Shown here one piece after another: positions 42,851 to 57,565 of a stretch of DNA of 64,000 bases. The notes below the pieces were generated by a model. The model was not told the DNA's origin and searched no databases. It worked only from the letters and a program-made list of their open reading frames with translations. The position numbers were made by a program, and so were the translations under genes. This stretch comes from Candidatus Dojkabacteria bacterium (lineage in GTDB: Bacteria > Patescibacteriota > Dojkabacteria > B142 > JAFGMG01): positions 11,991-75,990 of the forward strand of contig JAFGMG010000005.1 of the NCBI GenBank assembly GCA_016927655.1, written 5' to 3'. Position 1 is the first letter of the stretch, and each line of letters starts with the position of its first letter.

Positions 42851-42855
42851 TGAAA

Positions 42856-45318
42856 TTATTTCCTAAGTTTTGCTTTGTGCTTAGTCTCAAGCGTTTTTGT
42901 AATGGTGGAGATCGCCTGTTCTACTCCTTTTTGATCAAGCGTTTCTGTGCTGGAGCGAAGGACTAAACTAAGGGTTATACTTTTTTCGTTTTTCCCTTTG
43001 ATATCTTCGTAAATATCGCTGATTTCAACTGTCTCGAGAATATCAAGAGCAAGTTCTTTAATGGTTCCAATTATCAGGCCGGTTTCGGTCCTTTCGGGTA
43101 CAAAGAAGCTTAGATCTCTATAGACTGCCGGGAAATCACTTGGATCTTTATATTCCGGCTCTTTTGATGTATTTAAAAGGCCGTCTATCTCAAATTCAAG
43201 AATGCTCAAGTTTCCATCAATTCCCCAATTATTCTTCGCGGATGGATGAATATTCCCGAATAGCCCGATTGGCTTTGAATCCAAAAAGATTACTCCGCTT
43301 TGCATAGGATGGGAAAATTTTTCTAATTTGAACACCGTCAGATCCTTGAGAAGCTCGGTTTTTATTGAAATTCCCAGATCATCTGCAAGCTGGTCAAGTA
43401 TGCCCTTGGTTTGTTTGAAAGTGTCCTTTGTCTGACTGTAAACTGCAATCCCCAGTCTAAAAGGCTGATTCGGAAGTTTCTCGTCGTTTTTGCTATATTT
43501 ATCAATGACTCTTGAAATTTCAAAAAGGGCAAAATTATCGCAGTGATTTTTCAAATTCAGCTTGATTTTTTCAACAAGCGATGGGCTGATCGAATGCCTG
43601 AGGTATTGAAGCTCAGGGCTTAGAGGATTTGTAATTTTTAGAAAGTCTTTGATCTCGAGATTTGATTTATTGATAATTTCTTCTCCAATCATTGTGTATG
43701 AATACATCTCGTCAATGCCGTACCCGGAAAGGAGGTTTTTCAGCTTTCTGATAAATAATCTCTTCGAATTATGATGTGAAGGGGTCAAATCCCTTGTCGG
43801 CAACGTCTTTGGCATATTATGAAATCCATGAATCCTTGCTATCTCCTCTACAATATCCTCTTCTATTTTTAAATCGCGCCTGAATGATGGAATTATCAAT
43901 CTGATTTTATTAGACTGATCTACTTGGCTCAAGTTATTTTCTTCGATCATTTCATCCCCAATTACTTCAATTTGAAGATTCTCAAGCGTACTGATGATTT
44001 CTTCTTTAGTAATGTCGATGCCTAGAATTTTTGCAACTGTGTTTAGATCAAATAGTATTTCTACTGGATTCTCAGGATTAGGATAAAGGTCTACAATTTG
44101 TGATGCAATTTCGCCCCCTGCTATGTCTATAATGGTATTCGCACCTACCTTAAGACATTCAGTAAGTCTTGTTGGATCGAGACCTTTTTCGAATCTCAGG
44201 CTCGCTTCTGTTCGAAGACCCAGGTCCCTTGATGTCCGTCTTATTTCAAACATGTTCCAGTTTTCAACTACAAGTGTTACGTTTTTTGTGCTATTTTCAA
44301 TCTCTGTTCTTTCTCCTCCCATAATTCCTGGAATCCCGATCGCCCCTTTATTGTCTGCTAGAACGATATGCGAGCTTTTTAATTTATAATTTTTGCCGTC
44401 TAGTGCTTTAATTTCTCCTGCGTCTTTCGCCATTCTAATCACGATTTTGCTGCCAGCGAGCTTGTCATAATCAAATGCATGAGCCGGCTGGCCGATATCT
44501 GCTGCCATGTAGTTTGTAGTATCAATGATATTATTGAGCGGACGTATCCCGGTGACTGCAAGCCTCGCCTGCATCCAGAATGGCGAAGGTTTGATCTGGA
44601 CATCTTTGATGCAAAGAGCTGTAAATCTCGGGCAAAAGTCTTGTTTGACTTTATATTCGACAGCTAAAGAAAGTCCCTCTGCTGTTTGAGTTATATTCTC
44701 TTGAAGTTCATGACTCTCTTCAAGCTTGAGATTTAGAATGGTCGATAATTCTCTTGCGATGCCAAGATGCGAAAATGTATCCGGTCTGTGAGTGAGTGCC
44801 TTGTTTTCTATTTCAAGAATGCTGTCTTTGAGATATTCATCAAGACTTTTGCCTAGCTGTTCTTCTGGATCTAGGATCATTACCTGTTTGTGCTCGTCTA
44901 CAAGCCCAAGCTCTTTAATTGAACAAAGAACTCCCTGGGAATTTATTCCGTCAATCTCTTTTTCAGTTATCTGAAGTGACTTTTGACTGCCAAATTCACC
45001 CGCTGGATCAAGAATGCTCCCTCCCGGCAGGCACACGGGGACTTTGTCCCCTGCCTGGACTTTTTCTCCGCCGCCATGAATTATCTGCTTTGTGGTGTTT
45101 GAATTTATTTTTACCTGGCATATCTGCAGTTTGTCATTTTTGGGATGTGGTTCTGCGGAAACAATTTCGCCAACGACGATGCTATTTACACCTTCCCCGA
45201 CTCTTGTTACTCGTTCGACCTCAGCAATTGAATTGCTCAATTCTTCAGCCACCATATTTGCATCCACTTGATCGATTGTCGGAAGGTATTGTTGCAGCCA
45301 GTTTAATGAAATTAACAA
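42856..45318 (-). CDS. pheT: phenylalanine--tRNA ligase beta subunit
   Basis: 820 aa, B3/B4, B5, FDX-ACB domain order. Confidence 0.9.
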   Translation of the reverse strand: MLISLNWLQQYLPTIDQVDANMVAEELSNSIAEVERVTRVGEGVNSIVVGEIVSAEPHPKNDKLQICQVKINSNTTKQIIHGGGEKVQAGDKVPVCLPGGSILDPAGEFGSQKSLQITEKEIDGINSQGVLCSIKELGLVDEHKQVMILDPEEQLGKSLDEYLKDSILEIENKALTHRPDTFSHLGIARELSTILNLKLEESHELQENITQTAEGLSLAVEYKVKQDFCPRFTALCIKDVQIKPSPFWMQARLAVTGIRPLNNIIDTTNYMAADIGQPAHAFDYDKLAGSKIVIRMAKDAGEIKALDGKNYKLKSSHIVLADNKGAIGIPGIMGGERTEIENSTKNVTLVVENWNMFEIRRTSRDLGLRTEASLRFEKGLDPTRLTECLKVGANTIIDIAGGEIASQIVDLYPNPENPVEILFDLNTVAKILGIDITKEEIISTLENLQIEVIGDEMIEENNLSQVDQSNKIRLIIPSFRRDLKIEEDIVEEIARIHGFHNMPKTLPTRDLTPSHHNSKRLFIRKLKNLLSGYGIDEMYSYTMIGEEIINKSNLEIKDFLKITNPLSPELQYLRHSISPSLVEKIKLNLKNHCDNFALFEISRVIDKYSKNDEKLPNQPFRLGIAVYSQTKDTFKQTKGILDQLADDLGISIKTELLKDLTVFKLEKFSHPMQSGVIFLDSKPIGLFGNIHPSAKNNWGIDGNLSILEFEIDGLLNTSKEPEYKDPSDFPAVYRDLSFFVPERTETGLIIGTIKELALDILETVEISDIYEDIKGKNEKSITLSLVLRSSTETLDQKGVEQAISTITKTLETKHKAKLRK

Positions 45319-45334
45319 AGCATAAATTTAATAA

Positions 45335-46420
45335 TTAGTTGAACTGTTTGATAAATCTTAAATCCCCTTTGTGAAAAAGTCTGATGTCATTGATATTGTG
45401 CTTGAGCATGATCAGTCTTTCAAGGCCGAAACCCCATGCAAAGCCCGTGTAGCTGGTCGAATCAATTCCGGCCATTTCAAGGACTTTGGGATGTATCATC
45501 CCACAGCCTAGAATTTCCAGCCAGCCGCTTCCCTTGCAGACTTTGCAGCCTTTCCCGTCACAAAGTACACAGGTCAAGGCAATCTGCCCCCCAGGCTCGA
45601 CAAATGGGAAATAATCAGGAATAAATTTCACGTCAATGTCTTTTTCAAAAAATGCTTCAAAATACGTTTTCAGAGTTCCAAGCATATCTGTCATTGTTAT
45701 GCCTTTATCGACATAAATACCTTCAACTTGATAAAAAGTATGTTCGTGTCTGGCATCGGTTGCTTCATTCCTGAAGCATTTGCCTGGGACTATTATTCGA
45801 ATCGGCGGTTTTTTGTTTTTCATAACCCTGTTTTGCATTGATGATGTGTGCGTGATCAGGACATTTTTGTCTTCTGTCCAAAATGTGTCCCATGCATCTC
45901 TTGCGGGGTGGCCTTTTGGGATATTTACACTCTCGAAATTATGGTAATCGTCGTCAATCTCGTATGGCATCTCAACTTCAAATCCCATATTTACAAAAAT
46001 GTCTTCTGTTTTCTGCATTAGCTGGGTGATTGGGTGAAGAGAACCTCTCTGTGGTCTAACGCCCGGTGCTGTTACGTCTTTCCAGTCTTCTTTGAGATTT
46101 TTTTCCAGTTTTTGATTTTCGATTGTTTTTGTTGCGGTTTCAACCAGGCTTTCAATTCCTGCTTTCACTTCGTTTGCCCTTTTGCCTACCTCTGCTCTGT
46201 CTTCTTGTTTAACCTCTTTTACTTTTTTGAGAATATCTGTAAGTGCTGATTTGCGCCCCAGATATTTTGTTCTAAGCTCATCCAGCTTTTTGCTGTCTGT
46301 GACATTTTTGAAATCGTCTCTTGCGCAACTTCCAAGCTTGTCTAAGTTGTCTAAAACTTCGTTTTTCATTATGATGTATCTTAACGCTGTAATTATATTC
46401 ATAAATGAATCAAACGGCAA
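45335..46420 (-). CDS. pheS: phenylalanine--tRNA ligase alpha subunit (probable start MKNEVLDNL ~46369)
   Basis: class II motifs FRNEATDARHEHTFYQVEG, GFAWGFGLERL; Cys4 insertion CVLCDGKGCKVCKGSG. Confidence 0.9.
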   Translation of the reverse strand: MPFDSFMNIITALRYIIMKNEVLDNLDKLGSCARDDFKNVTDSKKLDELRTKYLGRKSALTDILKKVKEVKQEDRAEVGKRANEVKAGIESLVETATKTIENQKLEKNLKEDWKDVTAPGVRPQRGSLHPITQLMQKTEDIFVNMGFEVEMPYEIDDDYHNFESVNIPKGHPARDAWDTFWTEDKNVLITHTSSMQNRVMKNKKPPIRIIVPGKCFRNEATDARHEHTFYQVEGIYVDKGITMTDMLGTLKTYFEAFFEKDIDVKFIPDYFPFVEPGGQIALTCVLCDGKGCKVCKGSGWLEILGCGMIHPKVLEMAGIDSTSYTGFAWGFGLERLIMLKHNINDIRLFHKGDLRFIKQFN

Positions 46421-48264
46421 GAAGAACGCAAACTATCGCAATTATTGGGATGATTATCTTGATTGTAGCTATTCCTTTTACTATTGCTGCAATCAATCTA
46501 TTTCTTGATATCAGCTCACAAGCTGACCCGCAGAAAACTCCAGTCGAGGTTGTGATTTCTAACAAAAGCGAGAGTTCCGTAACTATTTCGTGGGTGACTG
46601 AATTGGATAGTGAGGGCCTGGTGCAGTATGGGACTTCTGAGGATAGCCTGAATCTTGTCGGGAATGATCTTAGAGATCTTGGGGGTGACAGCCTTAATGG
46701 GTACAAAACGCATATAGTCACTCTTCGGAATTTGAGTCCATCAACGGAATACTTCTACAAAATACTTTCGGATGGTGAAGAATATGTCGAAGGAACAGGA
46801 AGCTTTCAGACCTTCGCTGTTGAAAGCAGCGTGGGCGTTCCCAAGACTTTAAAAGGCAGCGTTGGATCCTCAAGTCCGTACGCTCTTGTGTATACTTATG
46901 CTACGAACAACCGGACCAGATCTGAAATTAGATCAACTTATACTTCTGCCAATGGAACTTTCACTTTTGATATTGCAAATTTGCGGACTGAGGATGGAAG
47001 TTCAACAATGCCAACTGAGGGAGTAAAACTAGTTACTTATGTAAATGCATCCGATCTTGGAAAGATCCGCAAAATTCATGATGTTGATGAAGATCCGGGA
47101 GATCTAAGTCTTGGGACTGAAGATATTGCCTTTGATTATAACGTGCAGGTCACTCTAGACGATGTGGCTGACGATACTGGCGGTGACACTACCCCAACTC
47201 CAACACCAACTACTCCGAAGCCTTCTACCACGACTCCGACAATTACTGCAAATCGTGTCAGCCTTGTAGATCCGACAATCCCCGAGAATATTTTTGTCAG
47301 TAATATCAATACAACCAGTTTTACGGTAAATTGGATTACAAAACAGCCGACTAGCGGATATCTGACCTACGGAGAAACAAGCACTAGTCTCTCAAAGGCA
47401 GTTCTGGACATACGTGATAGCTCAAAGGACATAGAAAGATTTACTCATAGTGTGAAAGTTACTAAGTCTGATCTTGAGGCTGGGGATATTTTATATTACA
47501 AAATTGTCTCGGAAGAAAAATCCTACGGCAGCTCAGGAACGACGGGAAGCTCTGCTTATGAGTTTGAGGCGCCGGCGATTTTAGACTCTCCTCCAACTCC
47601 CGATGCGGTGACCGGCATTTTGAATTATCTTTCTGGCAGCAGATTGTCTAATGAAAAGCGGGATTTTATCATCTACGGCCGGCTGGAAGATGCAAATGCG
47701 AACGTTTCCTCGTATATTTCTACAGTACCTGCCTATGAGAGTAATGGATGGACACTGGCATTGAATGCCAGGAAAGCAGATTTGAGTGATAGTTTTGACG
47801 ACGCAACTGAAATTGGTTTGGAAGTCGTTGGTGAATACAATTCGAATTCCAGCAGAAATGTCACGATATCTGAAGATACCGTGCAGATTGCGGTAAATCC
47901 GGGGTTAAGCCTTGATACACTTCGTCACAATGAATCTTATCCTACCGTTACAAAACTTGCGGGGACTGCTACTCCGAATGCATCTGTGAAAGTTACTATT
48001 GACGGTTCAAATGACACGATTGCAGCGACTGCAGATTCGACAGGCGAATGGGAAAGTGGTGCGGTTTCGTTTGATCAGGATACATATATTATTGGTGTTT
48101 CTGATTCAAATCAGGCGATGACTCTTAGTTTTGTGGTGGATTTGTCTGCTCTGCCGGCGACTGGCCTGGGACGCAACGAAATGATAATCATTGCGGGGAT
48201 CGCACTGGTAGTGCTTGGTATTGGACTTCGGTATTGGGGAGTCAAGCAAAAGGTTCTTACTTAA
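46405..48264 (+). CDS. cell-wall-anchored surface protein with two FN3-like domains and LPXTG-type sorting signal
   Basis: N-terminal signal anchor, FN3/purple-acid-phosphatase-N-like domains, TPTPTPTTPKPSTTTP linker, C-terminal LPATG + hydrophobic stretch + RYWGVKQK tail. Confidence 0.6.
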   Translation: MNQTARRTQTIAIIGMIILIVAIPFTIAAINLFLDISSQADPQKTPVEVVISNKSESSVTISWVTELDSEGLVQYGTSEDSLNLVGNDLRDLGGDSLNGYKTHIVTLRNLSPSTEYFYKILSDGEEYVEGTGSFQTFAVESSVGVPKTLKGSVGSSSPYALVYTYATNNRTRSEIRSTYTSANGTFTFDIANLRTEDGSSTMPTEGVKLVTYVNASDLGKIRKIHDVDEDPGDLSLGTEDIAFDYNVQVTLDDVADDTGGDTTPTPTPTTPKPSTTTPTITANRVSLVDPTIPENIFVSNINTTSFTVNWITKQPTSGYLTYGETSTSLSKAVLDIRDSSKDIERFTHSVKVTKSDLEAGDILYYKIVSEEKSYGSSGTTGSSAYEFEAPAILDSPPTPDAVTGILNYLSGSRLSNEKRDFIIYGRLEDANANVSSYISTVPAYESNGWTLALNARKADLSDSFDDATEIGLEVVGEYNSNSSRNVTISEDTVQIAVNPGLSLDTLRHNESYPTVTKLAGTATPNASVKVTIDGSNDTIAATADSTGEWESGAVSFDQDTYIIGVSDSNQAMTLSFVVDLSALPATGLGRNEMIIIAGIALVVLGIGLRYWGVKQKVLT

Positions 48265-48598
48265 CCTTTTTTACAATAGCTTTGAAAGTCTCCGGGTATT
48301 CGAATGCCAGTTCTGAGAGAATTTTCCTGTCTAATTCGATATTCGCTTTCTTTAAATTGCCAATAAACGTGCTGTATTTCATTTTTTCAGTAGAAAGAGC
48401 GGCATTGATTCTCTGGATCCAAAGCCTTCTGAATTGTCCTTTTCTTTTCTTCCTGTGAGCGAAACTGTACTGTCCAGCGTGAAGCCTGGCTTCTTTGGCT
48501 CTTTTTACCAGCTTGCTATAGCTTAGTCTGTAGCCTTTTGTCAGTTTAAGAATTTTATTATGTTTGGCTTTTTTGGTCTTTCCTCTTTTAATTCTCAT
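48257..48598 (-). CDS. rplT: 50S ribosomal protein L20
   Basis: MRIKRGKTKKAKHNKILKLTKGY. Confidence 0.9.
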   Translation of the reverse strand: MRIKRGKTKKAKHNKILKLTKGYRLSYSKLVKRAKEARLHAGQYSFAHRKKRKGQFRRLWIQRINAALSTEKMKYSTFIGNLKKANIELDRKILSELAFEYPETFKAIVKKVK

Positions 48599-48801
48599 TT
48601 GTTAGTGATTAATTTTTTAAGTGCCTTTATTTGTGTCCTGGAGCCTAGCTGGCTTCTTTTTCCCTGCCTGTTTTTTGTTCTGTTGGATTTGTTGGCCTTC
48701 AAGTGGTCATTGTCGTACTGTCTCTTGTGTACAAGCTTGCCTGACGCGGTTTTTTTGAACCTTTTTGCTGTTGCTTTGTGTGTTTTAATTCCTTTTCCCA
48801 T
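48595..48801 (-). CDS. rpmI: 50S ribosomal protein L35
   Basis: MGKGIKTHKATAKRFKKTASGK. Confidence 0.85.
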   Translation of the reverse strand: MGKGIKTHKATAKRFKKTASGKLVHKRQYDNDHLKANKSNRTKNRQGKRSQLGSRTQIKALKKLITNK

Positions 48802-48811
48802 GTTTTTGATT

Positions 48812-49378
48812 TTAACTTTTTTTAGGTCGTAAAATTAATGACAGATTTCTTCCTTCTCTTTTTGGCGGGTCATCGTTTGGTTCAAATTTACCTTCCATTT
48901 TGGTAAGAATTCTCTGGATCAGATCGTTCATCTGTTCGTTTTGAGTTCTTCCAACGGGTCTGATTTGAATTTTGACCGGATGCCTTTTTTCTAAAAATTC
49001 TGTAACTTTCTTTAGTTTGTGATTCAGATCTCCCTCTTCGATATGAACTTTGAACCACATTTCTTTCTGCTCTGCTGATTTGTTCTTCTTGGCGTCTCTC
49101 TTTTTCTTTGTTATCTCGTATTTGTATTTCGAAAATGACATGATTTTGGCTACCGGTGGATTGGCTTTTGGTGAGATTTCTATCAGATCAAGTCCATCTT
49201 CCAATGCTAGCCTTACTGCTTCTTTTGTATCCATTTCTCCGAGTGGTTCTTCTGCTCCATCACGTAATACAAAAACTCTTTCTGCTTGTATATAGTGATT
49301 TTTGTTCACTCTGATCTGGGGTTCTGGTTGTTTGTAGCCCCCTCTTCTAAACTTTCTTATATCTAAACAAGTTAACAA
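48812..49378 (-). CDS. infC: translation initiation factor IF-3 (probable non-canonical AUA/AUU/UUG start)
   Basis: IRVNKNHYIQAERVFVLRDGAEEPLGEMDTKEAVRLA N-domain, C-domain KxxxRxxxxGR. Confidence 0.85.
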   Translation of the reverse strand: MLTCLDIRKFRRGGYKQPEPQIRVNKNHYIQAERVFVLRDGAEEPLGEMDTKEAVRLALEDGLDLIEISPKANPPVAKIMSFSKYKYEITKKKRDAKKNKSAEQKEMWFKVHIEEGDLNHKLKKVTEFLEKRHPVKIQIRPVGRTQNEQMNDLIQRILTKMEGKFEPNDDPPKREGRNLSLILRPKKS

Positions 49379-49431
49379 TTACTAGGGTGATTTTAACAGA
49401 GACGGTGGGAATTCTCAACTGTTTGGTTGGA

Positions 49432-50085
49432 TTAATTGTCATAAACTCCTTGGACGAAATAGATGTCCGGTAGATCCCATCGGGCTTCTTTAAACGCTCT
49501 AATCGCCCTAAGTTCGATCGAGGATGTTGTCATAGAATATTGATCTCTAAAAATAGGTGTTTCTGTAGGACAAAACGCCATTGCGATATTTTTTCCTTGT
49601 TTTTTTGTCTCGTAAATAATGGGTAGAAGATGAGTCATTGTGTCCCAAATCCTTTTTTCCCAATAGGCTTGATTCTCTTTGGGCCCTGCTAGGTCTTGTA
49701 TATATTTATATTGAGATTCTGTAAATTCCCATATTATATCTCCTCTTCTATCGGGGTTTTTTCCATCTGCGATTAACTTGGTGCTATATGCATCATTCCA
49801 TGGACACATTTTTCGCGATTCTGTACAGTAATCTTCTATGACCCCAGAATACTGATCATCTGATGGACCAAATACATAAACTGCATCGTATCCTTCCGCG
49901 AGGTCGGGGAGTTCACCTGCATCTATGACTTTTATCTGGCCAGGATTTTCGCCGATTAGGTCTAGAATGCCTGGTTCGCTGTCGGTTATATTTTGTTGTT
50001 GTTCTGGGCTTAAAGTTGTCATTATATACGAGAAGTATATATAGTCATCATAGCATTTTTGCGACAGTTTTTCACTATATTTCAT
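49432..50085 (-). CDS. hypothetical protein (island gene 1)
   Basis: 217 aa, no recognisable motifs; compositionally less AT-rich than flanking housekeeping genes. Confidence 0.35.
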   Translation of the reverse strand: MKYSEKLSQKCYDDYIYFSYIMTTLSPEQQQNITDSEPGILDLIGENPGQIKVIDAGELPDLAEGYDAVYVFGPSDDQYSGVIEDYCTESRKMCPWNDAYSTKLIADGKNPDRRGDIIWEFTESQYKYIQDLAGPKENQAYWEKRIWDTMTHLLPIIYETKKQGKNIAMAFCPTETPIFRDQYSMTTSSIELRAIRAFKEARWDLPDIYFVQGVYDN

Positions 50086-50138
50086 GTTTTGTAAGTCTTT
50101 ATATTCTGGTATTATCGGGTAGTTTTTAGGTTGGAATT

Positions 50139-50510
50139 ATGGGTGATGAATTGATGGCGCCTGAAGGACAGGAGTCATTGCGAACAAAATTAGTCAAACA
50201 CTATATGGATGAAGGATACACAATGCTTAGTGAAGATCAGAGGCCTGATCAAGTTAAAATGGCTTGCAATATAGTGCAAGCTTCTTTGTCGTTTAGATCG
50301 ATTCAAACAGTTAATACTGACTTTCAAAATAGGCTAACTGAATATGAATCAGTTGTTTTAGCTGGGCCGGTGAATAACCCGCAAAGTGGTTTTGTAGAGG
50401 TTGTGGGGGTCGATATATTGAATACGAAACAGTTGGAAGAAGCAAAAAAGAGGCTAGATGGAGCAAAGAATATGTTCGTGGTGGTGGATGTGTTGGTGAA
50501 GGATAGGTGA
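50139..50510 (+). CDS. hypothetical protein (island gene 2)
   Basis: 123 aa; preceded 22 nt upstream by TGGTATTAT extended -10. Confidence 0.3.
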   Translation: MGDELMAPEGQESLRTKLVKHYMDEGYTMLSEDQRPDQVKMACNIVQASLSFRSIQTVNTDFQNRLTEYESVVLAGPVNNPQSGFVEVVGVDILNTKQLEEAKKRLDGAKNMFVVVDVLVKDR

Positions 50511-50566
50511 TTTGGCCGGTATTTCAATATTTGTCGTGTTGTTTTGTTCGTATAATCAAAAGATTG

Positions 50567-51166
50567 CTATACAAAAGTAGAATTTACCTCATAAATATAT
50601 TTTTCATCCCAATTTCTATAAAAACCTGAATTTTCATATAAATCGTCTAAAACTTTTCTTGCTTGTTCTTCCGTTATTTCTTCGTTTTCTATTTTAAATT
50701 GCATTGTTGGATGAGTTTTTAGCGAATGTCCGACTACAGTTTCAAGTCCTAATTGCTCAGCTATACTTAGCGCACTTCCCATCAGTCTCCTTCGAAAATC
50801 CGAGTTACTCAGATAGCGCCTGAGCCTTGCACTTAAATGATCTGGGGATTCTCCTGTTGGGGTTTGTGTTATTTCTAATACGGGTCCATTTATGTTGAAT
50901 CCCATGTGGGCAACGGCGACTTCTGATTCACCTCTTTTGTCGACTAGTTGGAGGCCGTATGTGCCGTCTATTGGCTCTCCTATGGATTTAGGCATATGCA
51001 TTCCTGGACAGAGTCGAATATTGTCTCTATATTCCTCATAGCCTCGGGCTAACCTTTCTAGTTCTTCGATATTTTGTATTGGTATGTATGTAAGGGCTTC
51101 TGGTTGTGCTAACATAGTTGTAAATCGCAAGAGAGGTATTATATCACTGTGATATCCATGATACAA
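50567..51166 (-). CDS. hypothetical protein (island gene 3)
   Basis: 199 aa, no recognisable motifs. Confidence 0.35.
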   Translation of the reverse strand: MYHGYHSDIIPLLRFTTMLAQPEALTYIPIQNIEELERLARGYEEYRDNIRLCPGMHMPKSIGEPIDGTYGLQLVDKRGESEVAVAHMGFNINGPVLEITQTPTGESPDHLSARLRRYLSNSDFRRRLMGSALSIAEQLGLETVVGHSLKTHPTMQFKIENEEITEEQARKVLDDLYENSGFYRNWDEKYIYEVNSTFV

Positions 51167-51220
51167 GGCTGTTATTTATTGTTAGAGATGAGGTTTTTGT
51201 TTGTAAATTCCAGTGGTGTG

Positions 51221-51239
51221 GTTTTGTTGGTATAATCAG
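51221..51239 (+). promoter_or_regulatory. promoter with extended -10 (GTTTTGTTGGTATAATCAG) for the mazG-like operon
   Basis: TGg+TATAAT at 51228-51236, about 130 nt upstream of the ATG at 51367; near-identical copy at 50541-50559. Confidence 0.45.
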
Positions 51240-51366
51240 CAGATTAATACATATAAATGTCCAAACAAGACTTCAAATCCACCCTTGAAAGGTTAGTTGC
51301 TACTTTTGAAAGGAATTATTTCACTTATAAGTCTATTCCAAAAATATAAATTTTAAATACAAAGAT

Positions 51367-51738
51367 ATGGCAAATAAAAAATCTGAAAAAACTCTCGTAG
51401 AACTTGAAAGTAAGGCAATTGATTTTCGAGAACAAAGAGACTGGGAACAATTTCACAATCCTAAAAATATCGCTGGGTCAATAGCCATAGAAGCTTCTGA
51501 ACTGTTAGAAGTCTTTCAGTGGGCTGAAGGTAAGGACAGTAAAAAGTTAGCTAAGAAAAGACTTCAAGAGGTTAAAGATGAAATGGCTGATGTGTTGGTC
51601 TACCTAGTAACTTTGGCACATGACCTAAATATTGACTTGATAGAAGCTGCGATTGAGAAAATTGAAAAAAATGACAAAAAGTATCCCGTAGAAAAAGCAA
51701 AGGGTAAATCTACAAAATATACTGAACTTAAGCAATAA
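51367..51738 (+). CDS. MazG-like all-alpha nucleoside triphosphate pyrophosphohydrolase
   Basis: EExxE...E(x)xxD metal-binding pattern: IAIEASELLEVFQWAE ... LQEVKDEMADVLVYLVTLA; 123 aa. Confidence 0.65.
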   Translation: MANKKSEKTLVELESKAIDFREQRDWEQFHNPKNIAGSIAIEASELLEVFQWAEGKDSKKLAKKRLQEVKDEMADVLVYLVTLAHDLNIDLIEAAIEKIEKNDKKYPVEKAKGKSTKYTELKQ

Positions 51739-51742
51739 TCTT

Positions 51743-53317
51743 ATGTACGAAATTAAGAAGTTCGATTATAAAAAAGGTAATTTTGATCTGATTAAGATTT
51801 ATAGGTATGGAGAAAATTGGCCAATAGTGTATATATTGGAAGACGGGAAAGAAGCATACGTTGGTGAAACGAATACAGCTTGCAGAAGAGCTACCCAGCA
51901 TTATGGAAATGAGGAAAGGGCAAAATTGAAATCGTTATATATTATTGCGGACGATGAATATAACAAATCTGCCACTTTAGATATTGAGTCATCCTTAATC
52001 CGTTATATGTCAGGAGATGGAAAATATCTCCTACAAAATGGCAATTCCGGAATCCAAGAATCCAACTACTATGATCGTGAGAGATATCAAGCAAAGTTTG
52101 AAACTATTTGGAAAGAGTTACAGAAGATTAATATTGTAAAAAATGATTTGTTGCAGATTGAGAATAGCGATCTTTTTAAATATTCTCCTTACAAGGCACT
52201 AACGGAGGATCAGTTAGCTGTGGTGGGAGAGATAATGCGTAGTATTGAGAATGGGGAGAAAATCCCGCATTTAGTATCTGGGGAGCCTGGAACTGGGAAA
52301 ACAATTGTTGCAACATATTTAGTTAAAGCATTAACTATGAAAGAATGGTCAAAGGATATGGAAGTAGGACTTGTCATACCAATGACATCTTTAAGAAGGA
52401 CTTTGAAAAGGGTGTTCAGAAACGTGAAAGGATTATATCCAGGTATGGTAATAGGTCCATACGATGTGATAAAGAAGAAATATGACATTTTAGTCGTTGA
52501 CGAAGCTCATAGATTGCAAAGAAGGCTTAATCTTACAAACTACCCAGATTTTGATAAGGTATCTGCTTCACTTGGTTTAGATAAAGAAGAGACCAACCAA
52601 CTAGATTGGGTATTAAAGTCTTCTAAATACCAAATATTTTTTTATGACAGATATCAGGCAGTAAAGCCAGCAGATATAAGATACGATGTTATAGAGGATA
52701 TCACGTTCAAGATCCACGAATTAGTCTCTCAGATGAGAATTAGTGGTGGCGAAAAGTATATTGAATACGTGAGGGATATATTTAATTGTAAGAAACCACA
52801 TCCAAATAAATTCTATACGTATGAATTTAAACTTTTTGATAAAGTAAAGGATTTGGTTGCTGCGATAAAACTAAAAGATCGAGAGCATGGATTATCTAGA
52901 ATTCTTGCAGGATATGCCTGGGAATGGAAAACTAAGGGAAATAATTCTATTGATTACGATATTGAGATTGATGAGGTAAGACTTAAATGGAATAGCGTCA
53001 CACAAGATTGGGTTAATTCGCCAAATGCAATAAATGAGGTCGGTTGCATCCATACCATTCAAGGTTATGATCTTAATTATGCTGGTGTCATAATAGGTCC
53101 AGAACTATCCTACGATAAGGATAAAAACAATATAATTGTTGATAAAAGTAAATATTTAGATTTCAATGGAAAGAGAGCAATCTCGGATCCTGCTGAGTTA
53201 GAGGCTTACATCAAAAATATATATAAAACGCTATTAACTCGGGGTATAAAGGGGACCTATGTCTATATTGTTGACGAAAACTTACGGGAGTATATGCGGG
53301 AATACTTTTATGATTAG
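51743..53317 (+). CDS. GIY-YIG nuclease domain fused to DUF2075 (Schlafen-group-3-like) P-loop ATPase
   Basis: N-terminal PIVYILEDGKEAYVGETNTACRRATQH...NEER (GIY-YIG); Walker A SGEPGTGKT; Walker B ILVVDEAHRL; C-terminal DUF2075 pattern GCIHTIQGYDLNYAGVIIGPEL and TLLTRGIKGTYVYIV; 4-nt gap after mazG-like gene. Confidence 0.7.
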   Translation: MYEIKKFDYKKGNFDLIKIYRYGENWPIVYILEDGKEAYVGETNTACRRATQHYGNEERAKLKSLYIIADDEYNKSATLDIESSLIRYMSGDGKYLLQNGNSGIQESNYYDRERYQAKFETIWKELQKINIVKNDLLQIENSDLFKYSPYKALTEDQLAVVGEIMRSIENGEKIPHLVSGEPGTGKTIVATYLVKALTMKEWSKDMEVGLVIPMTSLRRTLKRVFRNVKGLYPGMVIGPYDVIKKKYDILVVDEAHRLQRRLNLTNYPDFDKVSASLGLDKEETNQLDWVLKSSKYQIFFYDRYQAVKPADIRYDVIEDITFKIHELVSQMRISGGEKYIEYVRDIFNCKKPHPNKFYTYEFKLFDKVKDLVAAIKLKDREHGLSRILAGYAWEWKTKGNNSIDYDIEIDEVRLKWNSVTQDWVNSPNAINEVGCIHTIQGYDLNYAGVIIGPELSYDKDKNNIIVDKSKYLDFNGKRAISDPAELEAYIKNIYKTLLTRGIKGTYVYIVDENLREYMREYFYD

Positions 53318-53343
53318 ATTTAACTAATTAGGACAAAAGACAA

Positions 53344-53625
53344 GTGAAGTGGATATATAAGATTACTTTCCCAAATGGCAAAATATATATTGGCAAGGAT
53401 TTAACAGGTACTTTTAGATATTTTGGGAGTTGGGATAGTGAACTTGTTAAAAACGATCATCTAAATGAGGGTATAAATGTATTTGTAATAAACCGTGAAA
53501 TATTATGGCAATCGGATATTGCTTCTGATGAAGAAGTTAATTTTAAAGAGGTTGAATTTATTCGGAAATATAAGTCAAATGATCCCTCTATTGGATATAA
53601 TAAATGGCCCAAGTTTAAAAGTTGA
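53344..53625 (+). CDS. stand-alone GIY-YIG nuclease-family protein (93 aa)
   Basis: WIYKITFPNGKIYIGKDLTGTFRYFG (GIY ... YIG ... R) and downstream E/N. Confidence 0.55.
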   Translation: MKWIYKITFPNGKIYIGKDLTGTFRYFGSWDSELVKNDHLNEGINVFVINREILWQSDIASDEEVNFKEVEFIRKYKSNDPSIGYNKWPKFKS

Positions 53626-53909
53626 TAGATATAGATCTCGACACTATAGTCTGCCCTGCTAGAGCTGATGGATTCAAAATGGCGTTCGAAGGCCAGAAGG
53701 CTTGGTGGGCGGTGAGAATATCAGCAAGTATGCTCTCTCAGCTCAAATACATCGCCATGTACGAAATAAGCCCGATAAGTGCAATTCGCTGGGCAGGCAA
53801 AATCCAGTCAATCAAACCATACGAAGATACAGGAAAGTACAAGATTTACCTGTCTGAGATATTCAAAATTGGACCAGTTAAAATAAAGAGTCCAAAGAAT
53901 GCTCCTTAA
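53622..53909 (+). CDS. hypothetical protein, translationally coupled (ATGA overlap) to GIY-YIG gene
   Basis: 95 aa, no recognisable family. Confidence 0.3.
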   Translation: MIDIDLDTIVCPARADGFKMAFEGQKAWWAVRISASMLSQLKYIAMYEISPISAIRWAGKIQSIKPYEDTGKYKIYLSEIFKIGPVKIKSPKNAP

Positions 53910-53968
53910 GGAAGCAGATACACAAACTTTCACCTGTTGGAACGTAGCAAAGCGCTTGAGGAAATTTT

Positions 53969-55744
53969 TTAGCTATTCGTCTCAAGCAGTTCTTCTTTGA
54001 ATTTATCGTAGAATTCTTCGACTTTCATGACTCCCATATCTTCGCCGGAGCGCGGGCGCACGGAGATTACCTGGCTGGCTTCTTCCTGCTTGCCAAGCAC
54101 TACCATATATGGAATTTCATTTAGTTGTGCTTGGCGGATTTTATTTTGCAGGGACTCGTCTTTCATATCAATTCTTGCGCGGATGCCTAGATCTTCAAGT
54201 TCTTTCAGGATCTTTGCAGCGTAGCCGTTAAATTCATCAGAAATCGGCAAAATTATCGTTTGTGTCGGTGCAAGCCAGAGTGGCAGTGCTCCTGAATAGT
54301 TCTCAAGTATGAGCGCGATAAACCTCTCAAGCGAGCCGATCAGTGAATGATGAATAAGAACAGGTGTTTGATCGTTTGATTTTTGGTCGCTGTAGGTAAT
54401 TTTGCACCTGCCGGGAGTAACCATGTCAGCGTGAATAGTTGATAACTGCCAGTCTTTGCCAAATATATCTTTTATCTGGAAGTCAATCTTCGGCCCATAG
54501 AAATCAGCTTCTCCGACTGCCTCTCTTGCAACCATTTTTGATTCCTCCAGAGATTTCACAAGTATCCGCTCTGCCCTTTCCCAAGTGTCTTCGCTGCCCA
54601 GATAGTCGCTCATTTTCGTTTTATCTCTTCTGGAGAATTGAAGTCTGTATTCTCTGAGTCCGAAGCTTCTTAGAACTTTTGTTGTGAAATTTAGTAATTT
54701 TAGTACTTCTTCTACAGCGTCCTCTTCTGTTGTAAATATATGGGCTGCATCCTGGGTAAATTCTCTCGTTCTCACCATCCCATCAAGCTTTTTGGTCTCT
54801 TCTTCCCGGTAAATTCTTGCAAATTCGAAAAATTTCAAAGGAAGATTTCTATAACCTCTTCTTTTTGTCCGGAAAACCTCAATGTGACTGGGCGTCGCCA
54901 TGGGCCTAAGCATATAAAGATCCTTGCCAATTGGAAATGGTCTGATATCTTGATCCTGATAAAATTCAAAATGTCCTGTCTGCTTAAATAGCTCAACTTT
55001 TGCAATATTCGGCGTCCAGACTTCGGCAAAACCTTCTTTTTCTCTAAGTTTTCTAATGTGGCTCATTATCAGCCTTTTTATTTTTGTCCCCTCTTCAAGC
55101 CAGATTGGAAGTCCTGGTCCAGTAAGCTCCTGAAAAGCAAAAAGATCCCTTTTGGGACCTATTACTCTGTGTTCTTTTTCCTGTTTTACTACTTCTTCTT
55201 TGAAAAACTCTTTTAATTCTTCCTCAGTTTTAAATGCAACGCCGTTAAATTTATAAAGGATCGGCCTGTCTTTATCATCTTTCCAGTGAACTCTTTCCAT
55301 ACTTGTGAGGCGGAACGCTCCAAGCCTTCCGGTGTGAGCGACATGTGGCCCGCGGCATAAGTCGATAAATTCTTCCCCGGTTTTGAAAAAACTGATCTCC
55401 TCGTCTGGAATTTCCTGCAGCAGTTCTGTCTTGTAAATCTGCCCTTGCTGATGAAGCATATCAAATGCTGCGTCTCTTGGTATTAGTACCTGGGTGATTG
55501 GAAACTCTTCTTCGATGATTTCTTTCATTTCTTTCTCGAGTTTTGGAAGAATTTCTTCTTCTTTGAGCTGATCTGCAATTTCAAGTTCGTAATAAAAGCC
55601 GTTATCAACTGCGGGGCCGATGCCGAGCTTTGCATCAGGGTAAAGCCTGAGTACAGCTTGCGCCAGGACATGCGCGAAACTGTGGCGCATTTTCTCCAGC
55701 TCATTGCTCTCATCAATATTTTGATCGTAGTCGTTGTCTGTCAT
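53969..55744 (-). CDS. thrS: threonine--tRNA ligase lacking N-terminal TGS domain (ORF-track start 55936 is probably leader read-through; real start M59/M65)
   Basis: RHSFAHVLAQAV...IGPAVDNGFYYELE editing domain, class II core, anticodon-binding C-terminus. Confidence 0.9.
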   Translation of the reverse strand: MTDNDYDQNIDESNELEKMRHSFAHVLAQAVLRLYPDAKLGIGPAVDNGFYYELEIADQLKEEEILPKLEKEMKEIIEEEFPITQVLIPRDAAFDMLHQQGQIYKTELLQEIPDEEISFFKTGEEFIDLCRGPHVAHTGRLGAFRLTSMERVHWKDDKDRPILYKFNGVAFKTEEELKEFFKEEVVKQEKEHRVIGPKRDLFAFQELTGPGLPIWLEEGTKIKRLIMSHIRKLREKEGFAEVWTPNIAKVELFKQTGHFEFYQDQDIRPFPIGKDLYMLRPMATPSHIEVFRTKRRGYRNLPLKFFEFARIYREEETKKLDGMVRTREFTQDAAHIFTTEEDAVEEVLKLLNFTTKVLRSFGLREYRLQFSRRDKTKMSDYLGSEDTWERAERILVKSLEESKMVAREAVGEADFYGPKIDFQIKDIFGKDWQLSTIHADMVTPGRCKITYSDQKSNDQTPVLIHHSLIGSLERFIALILENYSGALPLWLAPTQTIILPISDEFNGYAAKILKELEDLGIRARIDMKDESLQNKIRQAQLNEIPYMVVLGKQEEASQVISVRPRSGEDMGVMKVEEFYDKFKEELLETNS

Positions 55745-56099
55745 TGCGGGTGCATTATACATGAATTTGAAAAAGAGTGGATGTGGCAGCAGAGGGTCAG
55801 GTAGTTGTGTAAATGGAGGTGTGCGGGGGTATATTTGAAAAAGCCGTGACGTACTAAGTGGCACAATTGTAAAAATTAGAAATAACGGTTTTGGCAATCC
55901 TTGTTGGGCGATATTATCCAGGGGCTTATAATACAAGACATGAGAAAGTGACAGAAAGTAAGTCAGTGATCTTTAGGAACAGGTATCCAGGAAATCGGAA
56001 ATGTTTCATAGAGGGGTTGAACCTGCCGTGTTTCACAGACCTAGGGCCTTTACGCGTGAGTTCCACGCCTTTGCCTAGTTCCGTTGTTATTTACAAAAG

Positions 56100-56172
56100 T
56101 GGGCGGTACAAGATTCGAACTTGTGACCACTCGCACGTCAAGCGAGTGCTCTACCAACTGAGCTAACCGCCC
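56100..56172 (-). tRNA. tRNA-Val (anticodon GAC), CCA not encoded
   Basis: GGGCGGU acceptor, D-arm GCUCAGUUGGUAGAGC, anticodon loop UUGACGU, T-arm ACAAGUUCGAAUCUUGU. Confidence 0.85.
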
Positions 56173-56188
56173 CGCGGGAAAACAATTT

Positions 56189-56791
56189 TTAACGAACCAA
56201 ATTCTTTCCCTTCCCTCTTACGATTTCGTCAACTATTCCGTATTTTACCGCTTCTTCGGCTGTCATAAAATAGTCACGGTCAAAGTCTTTTAGTACCTGA
56301 GTTTTTGTCTTTCCAGTTTGTTTCGCCAGATTCGCAGCAAGCATGTCTTTCAATCTCAAAATCTCTTTTGCGGTTATTTCAATGTCACTCGCCTGCCCCT
56401 CTGCTCCGCCTAGCGGCTGATGAATGTGAATAGTGGCATTTGGCAGGGCGTATCTCTTGCCCTTTGCTCCATTTGAAAGAATCATCGTTCCCATTGAAGC
56501 GGAGCTTCCAACCGCAATAGTTACCACATCAGGCTTCACAAGGTGCATCGTATCAATAATTGCCAAACCTGCATATACGGAGCCGCCGGGGCTCTGAATG
56601 TACATTTTTATATCAGTATCCGGGTTATTTTTTTCGAGAAATAAAAGCTGCGCCACGATTGCGTTTGCAACTTCGGCACTTATTCCAGTTCCAAGAAAAA
56701 TTATTCTTTCTTTTAGAAGTCTGGAATATATATCATATGCTCTCTCCCCGTCGCGAGTTTTCTCAATAATTGTCGGTACTAGATAGCTCAT
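56189..56791 (-). CDS. clpP: ATP-dependent Clp protease proteolytic subunit
   Basis: IIFLGTGI...GSSASMGT (Ser), HQPLGG (His) catalytic context. Confidence 0.9.
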
Positions 56792-56892
56792 AGTCGAGTT
56801 GATAACTAATTACTTGGCTGATTATACCAAAAATGGAAGGAAAATGGCTTTGGAACGATTTCCAAAGCCATTTTAAAAATTATGTTCCTCTA

Positions 56893-57234
56893 TTATTTCT
56901 TTTTCCCAACAAGGAAATACAAGAGTAGTCCAATCAGCCCAAAAAAGAAAGTCAAAAGGGCCCATAACGTAGGATTGTCAGTTCCTGATTTCTGTGCGTC
57001 TTTATATACGAAAAACGCAAGAGCAACAGGAATAATCAAGGCACAAGCCATGATACAGCACCACATTACCAAGCCGATACCTGAAAAAACACCAGAGCTA
57101 TCGGTAGTATCTGTTGAATACTCCCAGTCCCAATCATAATCAGATTGTGCGTATGCTGGTGTTGCAAGAGCCAAAGAGAAAACAGGCATCGCTATTAGAG
57201 CGACACACGCTAGTATTGCAAATAACTTTTTCAC
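56893..57234 (-). CDS. small secreted/membrane protein (signal peptide + C-terminal TM pair)
   Basis: MKKLFAILACVALIAMPVFSLALATPAYA signal peptide; acidic DYDWDWEYS segment. Confidence 0.35.
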   Translation of the reverse strand: MKKLFAILACVALIAMPVFSLALATPAYAQSDYDWDWEYSTDTTDSSGVFSGIGLVMWCCIMACALIIPVALAFFVYKDAQKSGTDNPTLWALLTFFFGLIGLLLYFLVGKKK

Positions 57235-57565
57235 TTTAGTTCACCTCCTTTCCTTTGTATTTCACCTATTGTAATACAAAAATAGAAACAAAAACACCCC
57301 TTGCGGGATGTTTTTGCTTGCACTTTTAACTATTTTTACTGCCTTTTGCTTTTGTACGAAGCTAACGTGGTTAACTTCAAAAACAATATATCAGATATTT
57401 TAAACCTGTGTCAAGGGAAATGAGGGAAAAAATGCCTTACAAGGTTAAAAATAGAGCGCCTGAGAAATCCTTCCTGATAGGCAAATTCAGAGCATAGGAA
57501 AATTATTGTTAACAAATAAATAAAGAAAAAGAATTTTTGTATAAAAAAATTAGAACAGGGTTATT

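Follow-up and report, generated by a model that had tools for sequence, protein, structure and literature searches.

What separates thrS, the threonyl-tRNA synthetase gene, from infC-rpmI-rplT in a genome of Candidatus Dojkabacteria (WS6, candidate phyla radiation, CPR), how did it come to lie there, and what does it do? We analyzed a 64 kb window of a Dojkabacteria contig, to which the coordinates below refer unless another contig is named. In this window, an islet of about 4.5 kb with seven open reading frames (ORFs), numbered g1 to g7 from the infC side, lies between the two. A sequence-only reading had described the islet as a single horizontally acquired cassette that was inserted into a housekeeping operon and cut infC off from the control of thrS. 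Our analysis instead makes it likely that the 3' end of thrS is a variable spot in one Dojkabacteria clade and that the 4.5 kb is a derived mosaic islet located there, with the gene pair g4-g5 as its functional core and with a probable defence role of the type of Nhi, an anti-phage protein in which a nuclease is joined to a DUF2075 helicase.

On the layout, the ORF map and domain scans agreed with the sequence-only reading. The genes thrS (53969-55744) and infC-rpmI-rplT (48257-49378) are both on the minus strand and form the right-hand and left-hand boundaries of the islet, with the seven ORFs between them. The product of thrS has the Pfam domains tRNA-synt_2b, HGTP_anticodon and tRNA_SAD, and an NCBI protein from Candidatus Dojkabacteria is 100% identical to it. 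The product of infC (48812-49378, minus) has IF3_N and IF3_C, and Ribosomal_L35p and Ribosomal_L20 were called on an identical contig for rpmI and rplT. The Logan assembly L001 (run SRR13394437) matches window positions 41743-57340 over 15.6 kb with 0 mismatches. Because L001 is identical across them, both junctions of the islet are reproduced by a second assembler.

We then compared the window with its relatives, taken as the contigs encoding the closest thrS homologues, namely L002 (83% identity), L003 (76%), L162 (71%) and L004/L005 (64%). In L003, L162 and L004/L005, infC was found directly after thrS, that is, the site is empty. The spacer from thrS to the called infC start was about 110-175 nt in L003 and L004. 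The gene order in L003 and L004/L005 was clpP - thrS - infC - rpmI - rplT - fn3-type protein - pheS - pheT - PBP, and the window was collinear with its relatives on both sides of the islet (clpP - tRNA-Val - thrS ... infC-rpmI-rplT - fn3 - pheS - pheT). Because three outgroups at increasing distance have the empty site, the islet is derived. The segment is an insertion specific to this lineage, and the thrS-infC-rpmI-rplT cluster that received it was contiguous in the ancestor. The sequence-only reading had proposed such an insertion and had suggested comparing the thrS-infC interval among relatives; the absence of the segment from these three relatives and its deviant composition, described below, bear the insertion out. 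Its premise that thrS adjoins infC in most bacteria holds in the close relatives of this organism and was overstated as a general rule: among 73 loci from diverse phyla that could be evaluated, infC came directly after thrS in 37. These loci came from an alignment scan dominated by distant phyla, with no Dojkabacteria among its results.

Two observations concern gene calls and spacers around this cluster. A minus-strand gene call downstream of thrS in L162 was rejected, as it proved to be an antisense ORF inside infC. Long antisense ORFs also occur opposite infC in the window (48234-49314, plus; e.g. 49050-49295); the call of the equivalent ORF as a gene in L162, made by the source pipeline, is spurious and could mislead synteny checks. 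On the far side of thrS, where tRNA-Val is located (56099-56172), variation within the clade also affects the spacer that separates clpP/tRNA-Val from thrS (window 55745-56098; L004 9283-9753; L162 1052-1336). This spacer was found to hold a NADAR gene in L004/L005, an HTH_3 gene in L162, and none in the window.

In the closest relative, L002, the site is occupied. There thrS is followed by 3.9 kb encoding a response regulator, BON, baeRF, and Bro-N proteins and a 222-aa ORF, then by a g7 homologue, and beyond it by a HEPN-like ORF (YNNVKHDR), where the contig ends. Apart from g7, this cargo (11828-16602 of L002) has no homologue in the window. Since the sister genomes carry different cargo at the same place, the 3' end of thrS is a variable spot. 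The L002 cargo looks conflict-related, and its baeRF is eRF1-like.

The boundaries of the insertion could be placed from alignments on both sides. On the thrS side, homology to the thrS of relatives extends to 53976, and homology to the g7 region of L002 begins at 53972. The TAG that ends the g7 frame (53970-53972) overlaps the thrS stop codon (53969-53971), so there is no intergenic DNA on this side. The interval 53910-53968, which the sequence-only reading had treated as a flank to be inspected for repeats, is the conserved 3' part of the g7 frame. On the infC side, DNA homology with relatives resumes at about 49431. From the g1 stop codon onward, the sequence TAATCCAAC...TTGAGA-17-TAAAAT can be aligned with the thrS-infC spacer of L003 over the entire length of that spacer, with a local alignment score that was reached by 0 of 2000 shuffles. 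The ancestral thrS-infC spacer is retained whole on this side of the islet (49379-49431, minus). The promoter scan placed the infC promoter within it, an extended -10 promoter with TTGAGA-17-TAAAAT at 49418-49390, and its extended -10 element TG-TAAAAT-CC..TAGT is kept in L003, L162, and L004; the empty-site spacers of all three align with the retained one. Taken together, the two junction alignments place the point of insertion at the thrS stop codon, so that the infC promoter, which already existed, lies downstream of the added DNA. A possible copy of the ancestral spacer beside thrS in L002 was marginal (141 of 2000 shuffles reached its score) and was not relied on.

These alignments change what the insertion can have meant for infC. 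The sequence-only reading had held that it must have uncoupled infC from the promoter and leader of thrS. As infC kept its own promoter, which was already present and is conserved in the empty-site relatives, at most read-through from thrS was lost. The Rfam matches were two tRNAs only, with no T-box or other leader family. The listed TTG start of infC (49378) may be wrong and the true start could be non-canonical, as in IF3 genes elsewhere; an in-frame ATA lies at about 49358-49362 (minus), at the same place in L003 (about 3158), upstream of the IF3 N-terminus RR..Y..P.P.IRVN. Nor was the suggestion supported that the opposite-strand genes each have a promoter-like element of their own, as promoter-like hits in the region were no commoner than in shuffled sequences (23 compared with 19.5 ± 4.7). 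Short direct repeats at the junctions, another expected mark of a cassette, were not found in a repeat search of 49300-54100, and the local alignment of the two junctions reached a score that 783 of 2000 shuffles matched. Searches with Pfam, NCBIfam, and PHROGs showed no integrase, recombinase, or transposase among the seven ORFs. Integration mediated by a tRNA or an integrase was rejected, as there is no tRNA at the junctions, the nearest being tRNA-Val beyond thrS, and no recombinase domain.

The composition of the islet differs from that of the flanks, as the sequence-only reading had expected. The GC content is 0.361 in the islet compared with 0.395 in the window, and the islet contains the GC minimum of the window: 51251-53625 (g4-g6; 0.336) overlaps the lowest-GC 2.2 kb of the 64 kb (0.337 at 51301), with 2.2-kb windows across the 64 kb having a mean of 0.395 and a standard deviation of 0.019. 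The islet can be divided into three GC compartments, g1-g3 (0.384), g4-g6 (0.336), and g7 (0.424). The first and the last are near the host value. The lowest GC among the islet genes is that of g6 (0.30).

We next turn to the pair g4-g5. The g4 gene (51367-51738, plus) encodes 123 aa that match the Pfam family MazG-like PF12643 with 64.5 bits (cut-off 27). Its sequence matches in the PDB were 4qgp (E 2.5e-23) and dCTP pyrophosphatase 1 (6sqw, 2a3q; E 1.1e-22). It aligns with dCTP pyrophosphatase 1 over the full length, with the acidic metal-binding motifs E..E and E..D conserved. By these matches, the g4 product is a predicted all-alpha MazG-like NTP pyrophosphatase of the DCTPP1/RS21-C6 type. 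DCTPP1 of eukaryotes is a stand-alone enzyme that sanitises the nucleotide pool, whereas g4 is a bacterial protein encoded in an operon with a nuclease-helicase.

The nuclease-helicase is g5 (51743-53317, plus; 524 aa), which starts 4 nt downstream of g4. Its helicase part belongs to DUF2075 / Schlafen group 3 (PF09848, 223.7 bits, cut-off 24). Walker A (G180-T187) and the DExH motif D253-E254-x-H256 are invariant in 30 g5 homologues. The N-terminal 135 residues form a GIY-YIG nuclease domain: PF01541 GIY-YIG was the best hit for all seven N-terminal fragments analyzed (g5 and six homologues), three of them above the gathering threshold, and the GIY-YIG residues Y30, Y39, G41, R49, and E82 are invariant among g5 homologues. 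In an AlphaFold2 model (pLDDT, the predicted local distance difference test, 82.8), the N-terminus has the order beta-beta-alpha-alpha-beta-alpha, and the best PDB matches of the model were human SLFN11, RecD, and Upf1. The match to Schlafen group 3 (SLFN11, SLFN14) was the best structural match (Foldseek E 1e-9) and lies within the same Pfam family; the sequence identity is 11%, and the N-terminal RNase domain of Schlafen proteins is replaced by GIY-YIG in g5. Comparison of the g5 N-terminus with g6 by hhalign was not significant.

The pair was found to recur as a unit elsewhere in Dojkabacteria. Three further genomes of Dojkabacteria (CP129478, JAFGCJ01, and an ENA contig) have g5 homologues with 68-78% identity. 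In each of them a MazG-like gene lies immediately upstream, and all other neighbours are different. No thrS more than 49% identical comes from the contigs of these three pairs. The pair is therefore far more similar than core genes (68-78% for g5 against at most 49% for thrS). Between these genomes there are no conserved DNA flanks around the unit, and homology ends at the coding boundaries. A second Dojkabacteria genome from the same sample (L008, SRR13394437) has its own MazG/DUF2075 pair at 1271-2665, with an SLFN_AlbA_2 protein about 7 kb away.

To extend this beyond Dojkabacteria, we collected loci by a search of IMG/VR and JGI metagenomes with the g5 alignment and used a MazG profile to look for the partner gene in them. 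In 49 of 55 evaluable non-redundant loci, a MazG-like gene adjoined the helicase gene in the same orientation. The helicases at these loci differ at the N-terminus. Those of GIY-YIG type had the co-oriented neighbour in 27 of 29 loci, and those with another N-terminus, assigned as PD-(D/E)xK-like by motif only, had it in 22 of 26. The PD-(D/E)xK-like N-terminus occurs in more distant g5 homologues, with the motif VDFILSG...ELKQW and no family match. The MazG-like and helicase genes can stand either way round. Many g5 homologues also have a C-terminal S24 (LexA-like) peptidase (e.g. L100, L101, L103, L095, L104, L152), which the g5 of the window lacks. Judging from this domain, those variants may have an autocleavage switch that is triggered by RecA or DNA damage.

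The helicase gene was also observed on plasmids. A Bacillus albus megaplasmid encodes, consecutively, a nucleotide pyrophosphohydrolase, a GIY-YIG nuclease family protein, and a DUF2075 protein. On a Paenibacillus plasmid, a DUF3578 gene adjoins the helicase gene. The pair is also present on IMG/VR viral contigs. We conclude that g4-g5 is a self-contained, horizontally mobile two-gene unit found across bacterial phyla. A literature search found no paper treating DUF2075 together with MazG.

What the pair does can be approached through its closest characterised counterparts. Nhi (Staphylococcus epidermidis SERP2475; Bari et al. 2022) and Nhi-like (Millman et al. 2022) are both experimentally anti-phage and both combine a nuclease with DUF2075. 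As in g5, the nuclease lies at the N-terminus and is joined to a DUF2075 (PF09848) helicase of superfamily 1 (SF1) with Walker A and B intact, and the family has been connected with restriction of phage DNA. The nuclease is PD-(D/E)xK in Nhi and Nhi-like and GIY-YIG in g5. Both were described as single proteins, whereas g5 has an almost obligatory MazG-like neighbour (in the census above). Among the islet genes, PADLOC matched g5 alone and only partially (AbiO, 1.6e-11; Nhi, 4e-11; residues 142-381); the Nhi model covered the helicase core, residues 142-375, and not the full length. It has been reported that phages escape Nhi-like by losing a DNA methylase, that DUF2075 NTPases adjoin modification-dependent restriction enzymes, and that DCTPP1 acts on 5-methyl-dCTP (PMC4491611).

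The neighbourhoods of the pair were rich in defence genes. Neighbours of the pair (n = 149) matched 156 PADLOC models at E <= 1e-10, including mREase_II (1e-161), RmrA, AbiEii, JetD, IetA, DruE, PDC-S04, and PDC-S23, and control neighbours of thrS (n = 132) matched 30 weaker ones, a comparison that counts models rather than proteins and has a control set from other taxa. From this genomic context and the analogy with Nhi, the pair probably acts against phages. Of the phrase "unknown or defence-like", which the sequence-only reading had applied to all seven genes, the second part suits two to three of them and not the rest.

The analogy with Nhi and Nhi-like also suggests the most likely mode of action. 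The protein with the GIY-YIG and SF1 helicase domains would load on foreign DNA of a phage or plasmid, possibly modified DNA, and g5 would then unwind and cut it. A DCTPP1-type pyrophosphatase would hydrolyse non-canonical or excess dNTPs (deoxynucleoside triphosphates). Hydrolysis by g4 could thereby keep nucleotides salvaged from degraded modified DNA out of the host chromosome, or alternatively could starve phage replication. We put forward only tentatively the wider proposal that the pair is an unrecognised, widespread two-gene immune system in which the nuclease-helicase destroys modified DNA, the pyrophosphatase safeguards self, the S24 variants are triggered by RecA or DNA damage, and such cargo repeatedly lands at the thrS stop codon in Dojkabacteria. 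The safeguard would consist in the removal of released modified dNTPs by the pyrophosphatase, so that these do not enter the host chromosome and the nuclease is not turned on self.

Several points weigh against the reading of the islet as a variable spot with a defence core. Only one occupied relative (L002) is available, its contig ends inside its island, and we infer the order of events. The insertion of the DNA is accounted for neither by mobility machinery nor by a repeat. The genes around the pair are for the most part ordinary metabolic ones. With 55-59% identity across phyla, the g5 family is more conserved than is usual for a defence gene. The S24 LexA-like domains of some relatives fit a role in DNA damage or repair equally well, and so do the repair genes among the neighbours, which include a MrfA-type helicase and an ARMT1-like phosphatase.

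The last three of these points lead to the rival that survives best, in which g4-g5 is a housekeeping unit for DNA damage and the nucleotide pool rather than for immunity, and the islet is a miscellaneous accessory region. The pyrophosphatase would sanitise damaged dNTPs, and the substrates of the nuclease-helicase would be replication intermediates that are damaged or have stalled. The autopeptidase fusions in many homologues, the very high conservation across phyla, and the helicase and damage-control phosphatase genes nearby all fit such a unit, as does the fact that DCTPP1 is a pool-sanitising enzyme and that the pair is retained in several reduced CPR genomes. We nevertheless regard a housekeeping unit as unlikely, though as a serious rival. 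The distribution of the pair is patchy and independent of genomic context; the pair is absent at this locus in L003 and L004 and is found on plasmids and viral contigs; its neighbourhoods are defence-rich compared with controls; and both characterised proteins that join a nuclease to DUF2075 are anti-phage.

The remaining cargo was examined gene by gene. The leftmost gene, g1, is a near-orphan on the minus strand (49432-50085 as listed; with the probable start at M22, 49432-50022 and 196 aa). It had no family match in Pfam, PADLOC, NCBIfam, or PHROGs and has three or four relatives with 33-56% identity. One of these, on a 1.6 kb contig, adjoins an ORF with an HD motif (HDMGN), seen in the sequence only and with no Pfam hit. 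The second near-orphan, g2 (50139-50510, plus; 123 aa), had no significant match in the same four collections (best E about 0.03) and a single relative (38% identity, E 5e-8) among 1.84 billion representatives. The third gene, g3, is on the minus strand (50567-51166 as listed; with the probable start at M18, 50567-51115 and 182 aa) and encodes a divergent GNAT-fold protein. No Pfam match was found across 35 members of its family, and there was no sequence match in the PDB. The conserved motifs of the family, CPG and HTPQG, do not appear to be those of a described family of GNAT acyltransferases.

A 44-nt direct repeat brackets g3. Its two copies are 77% identical and lie on the plus strand at 50533-50576, overlapping the 3' end of g3, and at 51213-51256, upstream of g4. 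These two copies in the 64 kb window compare with 0.04 expected by chance. Both copies carry GTATAAT on the plus strand, and copy 2 carries TGGTATAAT. Copy 2 is a likely promoter of the g4-g5-g6-g7 string, and copy 1 would fire antisense into g3. With two copies only in 64 kb, the repeat was rejected as a genome-wide promoter consensus. The repeat suggests that g3, or the promoter that it carries, was duplicated or inserted separately.

Downstream of g5, g6 (53344-53625, plus; 93 aa) encodes a bare GIY-YIG domain. It matched homing endonucleases in PHROGs (phrog_314, E 2.6e-6; phrog_7168, E 1.1e-5), with weaker matches to a group I intron endonuclease in NCBIfam (E 0.038) and to SegE_GIY-YIG in Pfam (E 0.1). 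It has the motifs IYKITF...KIYIGK and ends at residue 93. It thus shares a weakly supported catalytic domain with the GIY-YIG homing endonucleases (phage seg genes, I-TevI class) and lacks a DNA-binding domain. No homologue of g6 was found in any fetched locus. This gene is probably a decayed free-standing endonuclease and probably inactive.

The last gene, g7, is on the plus strand (53622-53909 as listed), and its frame runs on to 53972. It is 79% identical at the nucleotide level and 86% at the protein level to a 128-aa gene of L002. An in-frame TAA at 53907-53909 interrupts g7 where L002 has CAA, and past it 20 codons remain conserved (GSRYTNFHLLERSKALEEIF in the window compared with GTRYTNFHLLEHSRTLEEIF in L002). 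The TAA-bearing sequence is also present in the independent assembly L001. The TAA could be a recent nonsense mutation or could be subject to stop-codon read-through. It falls in the loop of a hairpin that resembles a thrS terminator (53900-53916, minus). The family comprises 12 small hypothetical proteins with members in other variable or defence contexts, one of them amid HsdM, SIR2, HEPN/MNT, and Gp49/HTH genes.

The composition and distribution of these genes allow a history to be proposed. The DNA would have been added at the thrS stop codon, with thrS and infC-rpmI-rplT left intact and separately expressed. Nucleotide identity between the window and L002 was 79% for g7 and 73-75% for thrS and clpP. 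Because its divergence is similar to that of the core genes, g7 probably dates back to the ancestor that the two genomes share. It would be the older piece, common to the sister genome and now interrupted by a stop. A later low-GC piece would have brought g4, g5, and g6, which now form a four-gene plus-strand string ending in g7. A piece of host-like GC would account for the divergent GNAT-fold gene and the two near-orphans. Of the rest, the g4-g6 string and g1-g3 belong to the lineage of the window alone and the 3.9 kb block to L002 alone; their order of acquisition is our proposal. The islet therefore does not behave as the single horizontally acquired cassette of the sequence-only reading, since its GC is in three compartments, only g7 is shared with L002, and the pair occurs elsewhere in Dojkabacteria in unrelated contexts.

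The same evidence makes it improbable that the whole 4.5 kb is one mobile element, such as a degraded prophage, an integrative element, or a homing-endonuclease cassette, that arrived in one event. A homing-endonuclease-like g6 inside the islet, sharp junctions, one at the stop codon of thrS and the other where the ancestral spacer starts, and a Bro-N gene at the same site in the sister genome would all suit such an element. It would, however, be an element with no integrase, recombinase, transposase, att-like repeats, or junction tRNA, whose g6 is merely a 93-aa catalytic domain. Besides the GC compartments, the divergence of g7 from L002 is about that of core genes while the other genes are unshared, and the DNA homology of g4-g5 between genomes stops at the coding boundaries. 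A search for close viral relatives of g1, g3, g6, and g7 found none, and a viral origin of these genes was rejected. Of the traits of a classical genomic island, absence from relatives and deviant composition were found, and an integrase, a tRNA or att site, and flanking repeats were not. The source is a metagenome-assembled genome and the exact sequence is found in one sample only, but an assembly artefact (a chimera) or an ancestral arrangement is extremely unlikely, given two assemblers that agree over 15.6 kb spanning both junctions, flanking gene order collinear with relatives on both sides, the empty site in three outgroups at increasing distance, and non-infC genes with a g7 homologue found independently after thrS in L002.

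The islet is a promoter-sparing mosaic variable spot, and not one cassette that disrupts the control of an operon. It resembles other genomic islets and defence hotspots in its empty relatives, turnover of cargo, deviant GC, and defence-type genes. It differs from them in having no integrase, tRNA, or att repeats and in its position, at the stop codon of thrS within the thrS-infC-rpmI-rplT cluster of a reduced CPR genome. Variable spots among core genes are ordinary, but this is a clean example in such a genome, with insertion exactly at a stop codon, a downstream promoter that was spared, and cargo that turned over between sister genomes. The part most worth following is the MazG-like partner of Schlafen-type nuclease-helicases, which is conserved in about 90% of the loci sampled across phyla. 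The pair connects a system of bacteria with two human protein families, DCTPP1 and SLFN11, and gives a testable hypothesis of how Nhi-like defences, which apparently target modified phage DNA, may avoid or exploit effects on the nucleotide pool.

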